Virus record (IMG/VR): IMGVR_UViG_2718218098_000005
Span: 1 to 40,480 of that record
DNA: 40,480 bases
Origin: a virus
Lineage: Duplodnaviria; Heunggongvirae; Uroviricota; Caudoviricetes
Reading direction: 5' to 3' (one strand)
A program made the position numbers and the translations under genes. This document shows, in pieces, positions 16,700 through 18,100 of this stretch. Every line of letters begins with the position of its first letter. The stretch's first letter is position 1. Under the pieces are notes generated by a model. That model was given only the letters and a program-made list of their open reading frames with translations. It was not told the origin of the DNA and made no database searches.

Positions 16700-17918
16700 C
16701 TCCACTCTCCTTTTTCTTACCGTTGCCATTGCCAGCAGAGGGACTGGTGGTCATGTTCATCGGTGTCAGATACACATCACCGCCCGGTCGGGGATTCATA
16801 TCCTCCAGATCACGGCAGTCATTAGGGGAATAAATCCCCCAGTTGATCCCCGTGGCATACGCTTCAAAGCGGGATTTCATGTCACCACGCAACAACGCCC
16901 CGGCATTAAATTTGGCGTAAAATTTTCCCTTTTTACTCTCCCTCACCAGCCCTGTATTGATCCGCTGTTCAATACGGGTCAGATACGGCACAAGGGAATA
17001 GTTAATGAAGCCAAGCCCCAGCTCTTCAATATTGTTGAAGGTGGCGCGGTCAGTGTTCTGCACCATATGCAGTGGCACGCGGAAAAGACGACAGATTTCT
17101 TCCAACTGAAACTTGCGGGTTTCCAGGAACTGGCTGTCCTCGGCATTCAGTGCCACCGGCTTCCAGTCCAGCCCCATTTCCAGAATCATCGGACGGTGCG
17201 CATTACCCAGCCCAAGATGACGCTCCTCAAAATCCCTCTTCATGCGCTCATAAGCATCCGGCGTGAGCTTTTGTTCCGTACGCAACACACCGGATGTCAC
17301 AGCACCGTTACCAAACAACCTGGCGCCGTGCTCCTCGGTTGCCGCTGCCAGTGAAATGGCCTCACGCGCATACGCAATGGGATTCAGCCCGACCAGTCCG
17401 TCCAGCGTCAGAGTACGCACATGCCAGATTTCATCCTGGGTCAGCACATCCACGGAACCATCCGGAAACGTCACCTGATAAACCGGCTGCCACTGACAGT
17501 TCAGCTTCGGCTCCACACAACCCGGATCTATCGGAAGAAGCTCCACCACTTCTCCCAGCGCCTTCACCTTGTAAGCGTAAAAGTTCCCCCGCAAACACAG
17601 GCAGACGATAACCAGCTCCCAGAATTCCTGCGGTGTCATGTAGCCATTGGGTTTTGCCGAAATCAGCTTATGCAGTCGTTCATCCACCGCCCGTGTTTTA
17701 AGGGTGCCGGTGATTTTGTAGAGGCTACAGGGCAGCATACCAACAGACTCCGCCAGCACTCTGACGCAGGAATACACCGCCGTCAGCCGCATGGCCCGCT
17801 GACTGCTGATCCGCTTTCCGGTATAGGTGTCGTATGACAATCCCAGCTCTTCCGCAAGCATCCCGGGTGTTGTAACGGGAGTGTTATTTTTGCGTTGAAA
17901 AAGCCCCTGGAAAAACAT
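16677..17918 (-). CDS. Portal protein (HK97 family)
   Basis: 413 aa, position after terminase large subunit, typical portal length/composition; TAATG coupling to upstream small ORF. Confidence 0.9.
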   Translation of the reverse strand: MFFQGLFQRKNNTPVTTPGMLAEELGLSYDTYTGKRISSQRAMRLTAVYSCVRVLAESVGMLPCSLYKITGTLKTRAVDERLHKLISAKPNGYMTPQEFWELVIVCLCLRGNFYAYKVKALGEVVELLPIDPGCVEPKLNCQWQPVYQVTFPDGSVDVLTQDEIWHVRTLTLDGLVGLNPIAYAREAISLAAATEEHGARLFGNGAVTSGVLRTEQKLTPDAYERMKRDFEERHLGLGNAHRPMILEMGLDWKPVALNAEDSQFLETRKFQLEEICRLFRVPLHMVQNTDRATFNNIEELGLGFINYSLVPYLTRIEQRINTGLVRESKKGKFYAKFNAGALLRGDMKSRFEAYATGINWGIYSPNDCRDLEDMNPRPGGDVYLTPMNMTTSPSAGNGNGKKKESGDADKTAS

Positions 17919-18100
17919 TACTCACCTCCGGAGGCGACCCGCTGACCGCGATCGAGATAACGCGCAACCAGCCACGACCAGCACAGGCACAGCGCCCCGG
18001 CAACAACAAAACCTGCCGGGGGATAAATCAGCCATGTGCCATACGACAGCAAAAGCGCCCCCAGCACGCCCACCAGTGGTGTGAGAATTATCAGAAACAT
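17918..18100 (-). CDS. Small hydrophobic protein (60 aa, two predicted TM helices) between terL and portal
   Basis: RBS GAGG 5 nt upstream of ATG 18100; 12 nt after terL stop; TAATG overlap with portal start. Confidence 0.5.

Follow-up and report, generated by a model that had tools for sequence, protein, structure and literature searches.

Results

Organization of the locus

The window, that is, the whole stretch of 40,480 nt analyzed here, carries a small ORF in its head gene cluster, hereafter also called the hairpin gene after the predicted shape of its product (Table 1). Every canonical head and connector role already has its gene in the window, namely those for the MCP, the protease, Ad1, Hc1, Neck1 and the tail terminator. 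The ATG of the small ORF occupies 18100-18098 on the minus strand, with a GAGG (18109-18106) 5 nt upstream of it, and the TAA stop of the terminase large subunit (TerL) gene (18114-18112) lies 11 nt 5' of the ORF. At the other end, the last A of its own stop codon TAA (17920-17918) is also the first base of the ATG of the portal gene (17918-16677), whose Shine-Dalgarno sequence (SD), GGAGGTGA, falls within the final codons of the small ORF. A sequence-only reading had described an ORF of 60 aa with a good SD, coupled to the portal start by TAATG. All of this was accurate, as were the coordinates it gave (the ORF is on the minus strand), and the PHROG 502 match, the homologues and the selection on the core place the ORF well beyond a chance one. 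Another ORF of 84 aa (17922-18176) overlaps it in a different frame and was treated as spurious, as the purifying selection is that of the hairpin frame.

Table 1. Positions of the small ORF, its parts and signals, and the neighboring genes in the window.
Feature	Position	Strand	Basis or remark
HK97-fold major capsid protein (MCP), phrog_10	14809..16035	minus	PHROG
Prohead maturation protease, phrog_80	16049..16729	minus	PHROG
Portal protein, PF04860, phrog_12	16677..17918	minus	Pfam 1.4e-108, PHROG 4.6e-141
TAATG stop/start overlap of small ORF and portal gene	17916..17920	minus	sequence
Small hairpin ORF, 60 aa	17918..18100	minus	ORF and translation, phrog_502 match, homologue clusters, dN/dS, AF2 hairpin
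Short variable cytoplasmic tail (predicted), residues 48-60	17921..17959	minus	dN/dS
Portal gene SD, within last codons of small ORF	17922..17929	minus	sequence; arrangement also in homologous loci
TM helix 2 (predicted), residues 31-47	17960..18010	minus	hydropathy, AF2, column conservation
Tight extracytoplasmic turn (predicted) Y-P-P-A-G, residues 26-30	18011..18025	minus	alignments; among the family's best conserved stretches
TM helix 1 (predicted), residues 2-25	18026..18097	minus	hydropathy, AF2, column conservation
TerL/small-ORF spacer, 11 nt, with SD GAGG of small ORF (18106-18109)	18101..18111	minus	sequence
Terminase large subunit; last ~19 codons (18112 to ~18170) in exchange block	18112..19869	minus	Pfam, PHROG, Evi comparison
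Terminase small subunit, P27 family, PF05119	19869..20351	minus	Pfam, PHROG
HNH endonuclease, adjoining terminase genes	20498..20848	minus	Pfam, PHROG
Lysis cassette: two holin-family proteins (phrog_198, phrog_217), endolysin (phrog_465), lipoprotein	21999-23305		4 kb upstream of small ORF

Similar junctions were found in homologous loci. The arrangement TAAC(C/T)GAGG...ATG is kept among enterobacterial homologues, and in other lineages the start of the hairpin gene overlaps the TerL stop. On the portal side, 19 of the 26 loci examined have a 1-nt overlap of the form UAAUG or UGAUG and one more has TAGTG with a GTG start, the others being mostly different overlaps or gaps of at most 8 nt, with a single gap of 31 nt. 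The conserved terminal Gly-Gly of the protein reads as GGAGG at the DNA level. No SD stands 5' of the portal start in the Reyranella group, so that reinitiation looks obligatory there. The hairpin gene belongs to the late head operon, in a translational chain from TerL through the hairpin to the portal.

Predicted topology and conservation of the hairpin protein

The product has a GRAVY of +1.09, with hydrophobic stretches at about residues 2-25 and 31-47 and YPPAG between them, and its AF2 model (mean pLDDT 84) has helices at 2-25 and 27-57. Hydropathy, the AF2 prediction and the distribution of charges together led us to call two TM helices, and these agree with the hydrophobic two-TM protein that had been claimed from the sequence, its insertion being predicted. 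K+R residues number on average 0.68 in the N-terminus, 0.15 in the loop and 2.62 in the C-tail, in keeping with the positive-inside rule; the 2.6 K+R of the C-tail are accompanied by 1.4 D+E on average. An N-in/C-in topology is predicted for the cytoplasmic membrane, which places YPPAG outside and the variable basic tail inside.

The first TM helix bears a stripe of small residues, in which G11 and G21 are at least 90% conserved and G14 is invariant, and W23 lies at the outer interface (47 diverse members). In the second, G35 is invariant and W41 and S42 are conserved, with A46 and R/K47 at the cytoplasmic end. Pairwise dN/dS gave an omega of 0.16 for the core against 0.08 for the portal, the core dN being like that of the portal, while the tail (residues 48-60) has an omega of about 0.94 and is neutral apart from the embedded portal SD. 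By these measures, the membrane core is under purifying selection. Moreover, the hairpin has been duplicated in tandem within one polypeptide at least four times independently, and one of these duplicated genes also lies directly 5' of a portal gene. The duplications are a hint that hairpins associate with one another; for one naturally duplicated hairpin, AF2 gave a model of low confidence (pLDDT 66, pTM 0.40).

No match to the hairpin protein was obtained in Pfam (E<=0.1), NCBIfam or PADLOC, and a profile search of PDB chains gave no sequence match at E<=10. Foldseek against viral models returned just uncharacterized small proteins with E>=0.03. Such fold searches are uninformative here because a two-helix hairpin is too simple.

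Family and distribution

The small ORF product matches the HMM of PHROG 502 with E=2e-25 and 89 bits, residues 1-54 aligning to profile positions 3-56 of 58, and phrog_502 and phrog_7105 are the only families matched in the PHROG scan at E<=0.01. PHROG 502 is labelled "membrane protein", and its relatives are phrog_7105 and phrog_4810. Close homologues form 142 clusters, and a profile search in 1.8 billion proteins yielded 328 clusters at 50% identity, which hold proteins of about 45-120 aa. Named homologues include the putative integral membrane protein of phiP27, SfII_03, ST64B sb3 and phiKO2 gp3, as well as Azospirillum phage Cd gp30 and Marinobacter phage AS1 gp3. The phage homologues are 43-83% identical and alike in length, in the two-helix hairpin and in the overlap of the stop with the portal start. 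They are annotated as hypothetical or membrane proteins in phiP27, SfI/II, ST64B, phiKO2 and many E. coli prophages. The protein of the window is thus an ordinary member of PHROG 502, a family that is already known and whose function is putative; a full-text search, run without the genome papers of phiKO2, SfV and ST64B, found no functional study of any member.

A 251-nt query across the small ORF found matching DNA in 1,287 of 5,426 complete E. coli genomes, and a hairpin ORF stands next to about one quarter of the portals in a small, taxonomically spread sample taken from the portal side, about 12 of the 16 portal modules being without it. These counts contradict the view that the location is an unusual one for a membrane protein. 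Conservation had been proposed as a check on the small ORF, and the family did prove to be widespread with its position kept, although HK97 itself is without it. In HK97, TerL and portal genes overlap directly with no hairpin ORF, and the gene is likewise absent from the 80 HK97-type contigs scanned, whose loci were only of the HK97 type at 96-100% identity. Every carrier that allowed a judgment of its lifestyle is temperate (Vibrio phage K303, for example, has an integrase), and a search for strictly lytic carriers found none.

Linkage with the portal gene

Loci were retrieved with a closer alignment (A1), which is biased toward members keeping the WxIYPP motif; the hairpin alignment A2 and the portal alignment A3 were too divergent for locus retrieval. 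We countered this bias by sampling distant profile hits and by the portal-first sample. A portal homologue lies directly 3' of the hairpin gene in 33 of the 39 loci retrieved through the hairpin motif, which come from Enterobacterales, Reyranella and other Alphaproteobacteria, Rhodoferax, Sphingopyxis, Micromonospora and Ruminococcaceae. For distant family members, a PF04860 portal comes next in all seven informative contexts, together with S78 or S49 proteases. In a contig of Ignavibacteria, a member (HMM E=7e-8) precedes a portal of the lambda family, PF05136, in the exact position of W. Portal-adjacent hairpin genes are therefore present in Proteobacteria, Actinobacteria and Firmicutes and in one contig of Ignavibacteria. 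Being attached to portals in at least four bacterial phyla, the gene is an ancient component of the head module, inherited along with it, and not an insertion.

In the Reyranella loci, TerL is 0.6-2.2 kb distant and the hairpin gene still overlaps the portal start. The earlier description of a gene inserted between terminase and portal thus holds in the window, but only in so far as the gene is the upstream partner of the portal. Comparison with related phages points the same way. In SfII-type phages, TerL is 37% identical, against 78% for the hairpin and 85% for the portal. Evi-type phages have a TerL gene about 97% identical at the DNA level, with a different hairpin (phrog_7105) and portal; phage Evi and the window are 96.6% identical in the first 1700 nt of TerL and no more than about 45% identical from about nt 1700 of 1758, so that the breakpoint falls 19 codons short of the TerL stop. 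Two independent mosaic junctions thus keep the hairpin gene with the portal and not with TerL, and the hairpin, the portal and the last ~19 TerL codons recombine as one block. In line with this, hairpin identity correlates with portal identity (Spearman rho 0.72, p=7e-5), and its correlation with TerL identity is not significant (rho 0.32). On this comparative evidence, the hairpin gene is a fixed partner of the portal gene, immediately 5' of it and usually with overlapping stop and start.

A special N-terminal motif of the portal, M-x-x-F/L-x-x-L/F, is present in hairpin-linked portals, yet it also occurs in portals without a hairpin and is therefore not a co-occurring feature. The hairpin gene was found in phages with vB_EcoM names, conventionally myoviruses, and the window has tail genes of the siphovirus type; since carriers have both tail types, the hairpin is independent of tail and injection functions.

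Discussion

A possible role in the assembly of the portal

Our leading reading, to which we assign a probability of roughly 0.4, is that the hairpin is a membrane accessory dedicated to the portal in the producing cell, where it would serve as a co-translational membrane platform aiding the formation of the portal ring in a T4-like manner. The protein would act late, in the phage-producing cell. Co-translational insertion of the hairpin would hold the ribosome and the polycistronic mRNA at the inner membrane, and termination followed by reinitiation at UAAUG would bring portal synthesis to the same membrane spot in a fixed proportion. The hairpins may pack via their glycine and small-residue faces, with probable self-association, and the two-dimensional platform so formed would help nascent portal subunits to build the ring that nucleates procapsid assembly. 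Such a factor would be helpful and not universally required, as HK97 and most sampled portals of the family are without it; likewise, its absence from HK97, from the 80 HK97-type contigs and from about 12 of the 16 portal modules indicates that it is not essential to the HK97-type assembly pathway. We know of no membrane stage in the assembly of HK97-like procapsids. One observation speaks against binding of the portal itself: the sole part exposed to the cytoplasm is the short neutral tail, which is unlike a binding surface. The conservation inside the membrane and in the outer turn would fit a membrane-embedded partner or self-assembly better. The earlier suggestion of a packaging-associated membrane factor went in the right direction, but by the evidence the gene belongs with the portal and not with the terminase or packaging.

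Two known systems bear comparison with such a platform. In T4, the phage chaperone gp40 and host YidC, with a membrane-bound gp20 initiator, give rise to the portal ring that nucleates the prohead (PMC9958956). The likeness lies in a phage-encoded factor that uses the inner membrane for the portal ring, which we propose as a working analogy for the hairpin. However, no head-vertex chaperone family was matched by the hairpin in the PHROG scan described above. To our knowledge, T4 gene 40 is neither adjacent to nor translationally coupled with gene 20. In PRD1, the very small membrane proteins P20 and P22 nucleate assembly of the unique portal and packaging vertex (PMC4267777). They resemble the proposed hairpin in being very small integral membrane proteins tied to a portal vertex, but the virion of PRD1 contains an internal membrane and its portal (P6/P9) is non-homologous, whereas the particles of tailed phages have no membrane; similarity in sequence would not be expected.

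A wider claim is conceivable, though we regard it as rather unlikely: a sizeable fraction of HK97-type phages, about one quarter of the sampled portal modules and with both Gram-negative and Gram-positive hosts, might form membrane-nucleated procapsids in which the coupled hairpin recruits or chaperones the portal. If this were true, membrane-initiated head assembly would be widespread rather than a peculiarity of T4, with a simple and genetically tractable determinant. HK97-like phages have no separate scaffolding protein, and how one portal ring gets built and set at one vertex is poorly understood in them. A small membrane protein chained to the portal across phyla would offer a cheap and direct handle on this question.

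Alternative roles

First, the protein could be holin-like, that is, a class II holin, an antiholin or an auxiliary protein made in proportion to the portal, which would tune the time of lysis to head production. Class II holins and pinholins such as S21-68 have about 60-70 aa, two TMDs, an N-in/C-in topology, glycine-rich faces and a basic C-terminus. The hairpin protein shares with them the small size, the two TM helices, the predicted N-in/C-in topology, the glycine-rich helix faces and a charged, basic C-tail; its late transcript is also that of the lysis genes, and its tandem duplicates suggest oligomerization. Yet the window has a separate, complete lysis cassette with two holin-family proteins, and Vibrio phage K303, another carrier, likewise encodes a holin apart from the hairpin. 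PHROGs and Pfam gave no match to a holin family, the protein has no dual-start motif, its tail is neutral and only weakly charged, and in the loci examined the gene was never seen in a lysis cassette but at the portal. We consider this role improbable.

Second, the ORF may have no specific partner and be a device for coupling or for localizing mRNA, whose product brings the head mRNA to the membrane (transertion) or which sets, by termination and reinitiation, how much portal is translated relative to TerL. This agrees with the almost universal stop/start overlap, with the missing portal SD of the Reyranella group, with the portal SD embedded in the last codons and with the neutrality of the tail. 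However, G11, G14, G21, W23, P28, G30, G35, W41 and S42 are conserved between phyla, and together with the core omega of 0.16 this is a constraint far beyond what any generic hydrophobic segment would require. HK97, moreover, achieves coupling by the direct overlap of TerL and portal. A pure coupling device is likewise an improbable explanation.

Third, the gene may be a moron, as the sequence-only reading had suggested. Its membrane protein would then be made from the prophage and shut out superinfecting phages or help the host in some other way, in the manner of gp15 of HK97. The PHROGs category of the family is "moron, auxiliary metabolic gene and host takeover", superinfection-exclusion factors are typically small inner-membrane proteins, and the carriers of judgeable lifestyle are temperate throughout. 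Morons of the HK97 gp15 type are also small inner-membrane proteins within the late structural operon of HK97-like phages. But morons have their own promoter and terminator and a sporadic distribution, whereas the hairpin gene shows no such signals beyond chance and keeps its synteny with portals across phyla. Over 5 kb we counted 4 sites resembling promoters and 5 resembling terminators, where shuffled sequence would give 4.2 and 4.9, and none convincingly brackets the small ORF, whose spacers are 11 nt and -1 nt. No RNA structure was detected at the hairpin region, where 241 nt fold no better than shuffles (z=+0.5) and Rfam gave nothing. The "putative terminator" annotated inside the SfII homologue has a weak counterpart in the window, with a 5-bp stem. 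GC3 is 0.62 in the small ORF, 0.62 in the portal and 0.57 in TerL, so there is no compositional break; the higher overall GC of the small ORF (0.59) is due to its composition rich in Gly, Ala, Leu, Pro and Trp. Translation of the gene is chained to that of its neighbors in the late operon, and its linkage to the portal extends over at least four phyla regardless of tail type, receptor and host. Copies decay with the prophage, with a frameshift in one locus (L020) and truncated portals adjoining the gene in three (L010, L012 and L042). Although only about a quarter of the sampled portal modules have the gene and HK97 does not, where present it follows portal phylogeny and mosaic blocks, unlike a moron. 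The PHROGs category simply follows the label "membrane protein". Taken together, a moron is very improbable. If the protein were a lysis or exclusion factor after all, its coupling to the portal would still need explaining.

Finally, the hairpin could enter the head with the portal and be ejected at infection to help DNA across the inner membrane, which the stoichiometric coupling with the portal and the frequent location of genes for portal-associated minor head proteins (e.g. SPP1 gp7) beside portal genes would fit; but a protein so hydrophobic, with almost no soluble surface, should be trapped in the membrane of the producer cell, the gene occurs irrespective of tail type, a membrane-active function usually comes from the tape measure and no supporting virion proteomics was found, so that we give this role hardly any credence.

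Annotation of the family

The family goes under the name "head-tail joining protein W" in several GenBank records. Lambda gpW is a small (68 aa) soluble head-completion protein encoded between the TerL gene A and the portal gene B, and the hairpin gene likewise lies between TerL and portal in a tightly packed arrangement. We rejected identity with gpW on three grounds. First, the hairpin protein is a membrane hairpin, as its GRAVY and two predicted TM helices indicate, and has no match to the Pfam gpW family (E<=0.1), whereas gpW is soluble. Second, it has no profile match among the PDB chains, to which the solved structure of gpW should belong. Third, the connector proteins Ad1, Hc1 and Neck1 are already present in the window. 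The label "W" is thus a positional mis-annotation, and the family should be neither called "head-tail joining protein W" nor filed as a moron. The pair of hairpin and portal genes is in turn well suited to mark the mosaic exchange unit, to which the C-terminal tail of TerL also belongs. In several phage records, the hairpin gene has been left unannotated.

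Gene layout and family

The gene under study, an ORF of 60 codons whose predicted product we call the hairpin, stands in the late operon of the window, which is a standard HK97-like late module on the minus strand. Its ATG at 18100 is preceded by GAGG, 5 nt upstream, and by the stop of the large terminase (TerL), 11 nt upstream, while the portal ATG and the TAA of the ORF have one base in common (the last A of TAA) in a TAATG junction, and the Shine-Dalgarno (SD) sequence of the portal (GGAGGTGA) lies within the last codons of the ORF. With a GRAVY of +1.09 the product is very hydrophobic, and YPPAG divides its two hydrophobic stretches. 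The sequence-only reading had described the small two-TM product, its good SD and the TAATG at the portal start correctly. An overlapping 84-aa ORF in another frame, which also covers the TerL end, was considered spurious; selection was seen in the hairpin frame.

Coordinates of the features in the window
Feature	Position	Strand	Remark
HNH endonuclease	20498-20848	minus	
Small terminase	19869-20351	minus	P27 family
Large terminase (TerL)	18112-19869	minus	
Hairpin ORF	17918-18100	minus	60 codons
Portal	16677-17918	minus	PF04860
Prohead protease	16049-16729	minus	
Major capsid protein	14809-16035	minus	
Ad1 adaptor, Hc1 head closure, Neck1, tail terminator, major tail protein	same late module	minus	
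84-aa ORF	17922-18176	minus	other frame
Weak 5-bp stem	18055-18067		
Mosaic breakpoint	18112-18170	minus	last ~19 TerL codons
Lysis cassette	21999-23305	minus	two holin-family genes, endolysin, lipoprotein
Holin-family gene	22841-23305	minus	phrog_198
Holin-family gene	22576-22905	minus	phrog_217
Endolysin	22196-22579	minus	
Four tRNA genes	23991-24300	minus	Gly-tcc, Thr-tgt, Lys-ttt, Met-cat
sok antitoxin RNA	27542-27691	minus	Rfam, 107 bits
DicF small RNA	36007-36058	plus	76.7 bits

The protein matched PHROG 502 ('membrane protein') with E=2e-25 and phrog_7105 more weakly, and had no match in Pfam, NCBIfam or PADLOC. By tblastn, a homologue is present in 43 phage records, including phiP27, SfI/II/IV, ST64B, 118970_sal3, PY54, phiKO2, Klebsiella and Yersinia phages, Azospirillum phage Cd and Marinobacter phage AS1. 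The word-indexed protein search yielded 142 clusters, and the profile search of 1.84 billion representatives yielded 328 clusters at E<=1e-3, nearly all of 45-120 residues. The ORF is a real gene, and it is conserved. Of 5,426 complete E. coli genomes, 1,287 contain DNA similar to a 251-nt query that spans the ORF (coverage of at least 80% in 521), so the window is an E. coli prophage; seven strains are 100% identical and carry the PGAP label 'hypothetical protein'.

The ORF is present and unannotated in SfIV (KC814930/NC_022749), PY54 (AJ564013/NC_005069) and Pseudomonas phage SC_9 (L134 519-698). In the SfII record (L004 2370-2419) a 'putative rho-independent terminator' is annotated within the 5' part of the ORF; its counterpart in the window is only a weak 5-bp stem, where folding is not unusual. 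OR844959.1, 'Enterococcus phage Efm 3-10' (1764 bp), encodes a hairpin with 77% identity to that of the window, and the 'Bacillota bacterium' MAG JAEWTL010000102 (L011) has TerL, hairpin and portal in a stretch of the SfII/enterobacterial type; for both, contamination or mis-binning is more probable than a Gram-positive phage.

Topology and selection

AlphaFold2, run on a 47-sequence alignment, predicted helices at residues 2-25 and 27-57 with a mean pLDDT of 84. The 47 aligned members, which are diverse, all have G14 and G35; G11 and G21 are kept in at least 90% of them, and conservation is also strong at W23, P28, A29, G30, I32, W41, S42, A46 and R/K47. Counts of lysine plus arginine average 2.6 in the tail and 0.7 at the N-terminus but only 0.15 in the loop, a distribution that predicts an N-in/C-in orientation in which the YPPAG turn faces outwards. 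In pairwise Nei-Gojobori comparison of 11 enterobacterial homologues, residues 6-47 have an omega (dN/dS) of 0.16 and dN of 0.19, the adjoining portal has an omega of 0.08 and dN of 0.14, and the 13-residue tail has an omega of about 0.94. By these rates the unit under selection is the membrane hairpin, with the intramembrane core and the outer turn as targets, and the tail is free to vary except for the last Gly-Gly codons, which are the portal SD.

Linkage to the portal gene

The homologues of phiKO2, Azospirillum phage Cd, Marinobacter AS1 and SfII all lie between TerL and portal, and each has a stop codon that overlaps the portal start. A motif-based scan with one genome per species, biased to members with the WxIYPP motif, gave 39 loci; tblastn placed a portal homologue directly 3' of the hairpin in 33 of them, and ORF analysis showed that stop and start overlap by 1 nt in most. 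Short contigs, degraded prophages and L037, where unrecognised genes and then an S78 protease follow, make up the exceptions. In several Reyranella loci the TerL end lies 0.6-2.2 kb upstream and the hairpin still overlaps the portal start. Individual loci show decay: a degraded Reyranella contig (L042) has a 57-aa portal remnant, two E. coli strains (L010 and L012) have an intact hairpin and a truncated portal, and Shigella flexneri (L020 3501-3716) has a frameshifted hairpin beside an intact portal.

Because the scan favours WxIYPP members, eight distant profile hits, with E between 2e-7 and 3e-5, were also followed to their contigs, and a PF04860 portal came next in all seven informative contexts. 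The proteases of these modules are S78 or S49, and one of the hairpins is tandem-duplicated. The pairing also occurs in a Micromonospora locus, and on an Ignavibacteriaceae MAG contig (L043) a member at 681-905 (HMM E=7e-8) runs into the start of the portal at 905-2434, which is of the lambda family (PF05136). The member's position is exactly the lambda gene W slot, and a fused S78 protease-capsid protein comes after.

Among 26 tabulated junctions, 19 are UAAUG/UGAUG and one is UAGUG before a GTG start; the rest mostly have a 4-44 nt overlap or a 3-8 nt gap, with one gap of 31 nt. No SD-like sequence precedes the portal start in the Reyranella group, so portal translation there is probably reinitiation-dependent. 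Taken together, gene order and junctions indicate that the hairpin gene belongs with the portal gene, is translationally coupled to it and is inherited with it.

The reverse does not hold for every portal. In HK97 itself the TerL gene directly overlaps that of the portal, and a search of 80 HK97-type viral contigs in every frame found no family member and recovered all positive controls. From 1,469 phage records with a homologous portal, 16 were chosen for taxonomic spread: an HMM-detectable hairpin lies directly 5' of the portal in three (Vibrio K303, Mycobacterium phage Bombitas gp8 and the unannotated ORF of Pseudomonas phage SC_9), in Clostridium phiCT19406C the slot holds a 68-aa ORF that is very hydrophobic but unrelated, and the other 12 have no such ORF upstream of the portal. 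The gene is thus an old and frequent companion of this family of portals, though one that they can do without.

Exchange with the TerL tail

SfII/phiP27-type phages have hairpins 75-78% and portals 85-95% identical to those of the window; in the SfII-type loci TerL is just 37% identical. Conversely, TerL of phage Evi and of eight E. coli relatives matches that of the window (96.6% DNA identity over 1700 nt) up to a switch point 19 codons before the TerL stop, beyond which C-terminal tail, hairpin and portal are all different; against Evi, identity there is about 45% or less. In place of the window's hairpin, Evi and its eight relatives have one from a second, distantly related family (phrog_7105, 53 aa, VKQLITDMTGLIGFGLLTAGVYLYAGLPASLMLSGCLLLLYALVVSMRRKHAS; E=1e-6 to phrog_502), which fills the equivalent slot ahead of another portal (L044 2285-2446 in Evi). 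Two independent recombination histories split TerL from the hairpin-portal pair, and the exchange unit is thus the TerL C-terminal ~19 residues, hairpin and portal. Yeo and Feiss are said to have identified in 1995 the extreme C-terminus of the lambda large terminase as its portal-binding segment. Movement of the TerL tail with the portal is consistent with such a role, which would set the hairpin among elements that interact with the portal. In a comparison of 24 loci, hairpin identity follows portal identity (Spearman 0.72, p=7e-5) and not significantly TerL identity (0.32); as these loci are not phylogenetically independent, the correlation serves only to support the junction evidence.

Possible role

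The evidence speaks against several identities. The suggestion of a moron is not supported, since promoter- and terminator-like sites are at shuffle expectation, GC3 equals that of the portal and the gene is translationally chained to both neighbours; there is also no stable RNA structure at the ORF. Nor is it lambda gpW: the product is a predicted membrane protein with no Pfam or PDB-profile similarity to gpW, and the connector roles are already taken by Ad1, Hc1 and Neck1. The label 'head-tail joining protein W' on the gene in ON470580, ON470603, ON470584 and PQ793804 is positional only and is contradicted by the sequence. The phage's holin is rejected because a complete lysis cassette exists elsewhere; its 84-aa protein with an LVGC lipobox (phrog_7528) may be a spanin. 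No defence-system model was matched by the hairpin.

The descriptive part of the finding is very likely correct. For its function we favour, at a probability of about 0.4, a portal-specific accessory at the inner membrane of the producing cell. Co-translational insertion of the hairpin would keep ribosome and mRNA at the membrane, reinitiation at UAAUG would yield portal there in fixed proportion, and an oligomeric hairpin platform might aid ring formation and procapsid nucleation. Self-association is hinted at by stripes of small residues on both helices and by tandem fusions in at least four independent lineages (metagenomic P0154, P0174, P0204 and P0249, 102-122 aa; L153 64-399), although the AF2 model of the tandem form is not confident; P0174, the one with context, is also directly 5' of a portal. 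A precedent is T4, whose gp20 portal initiator is assembled on the inner membrane with gp40, contacting YidC (PMC9958956); a looser one comes from PRD1, whose packaging vertex is nucleated by the tiny membrane proteins P20 and P22 (PMC4267777).

The portal-accessory reading has one main weakness. Since the sole cytoplasmic segment is short and evolves neutrally, direct portal contact is not evident, and a function wholly within the membrane would account for the conserved residues equally well. Four rivals are therefore kept, each at lower weight: a holin-like function, a gene that serves coupling only, exclusion and a virion component.

The family is already catalogued (PHROG 502) and the gene annotated in many records, and our literature search found no functional study of it. 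What may be new is the gene as a cross-phylum, translationally coupled portal partner exchanged with the TerL C-terminal tail, a generalisation that offers a cheap, concrete experiment on a membrane step in HK97-like head assembly.

Other elements of the window

Four tRNA genes are clustered upstream of the lysis cassette. The Rfam match to sok indicates that the prophage carries a type I toxin-antitoxin locus of hok/sok type, and the DicF small RNA is typical of lambdoid and Qin-like prophages.
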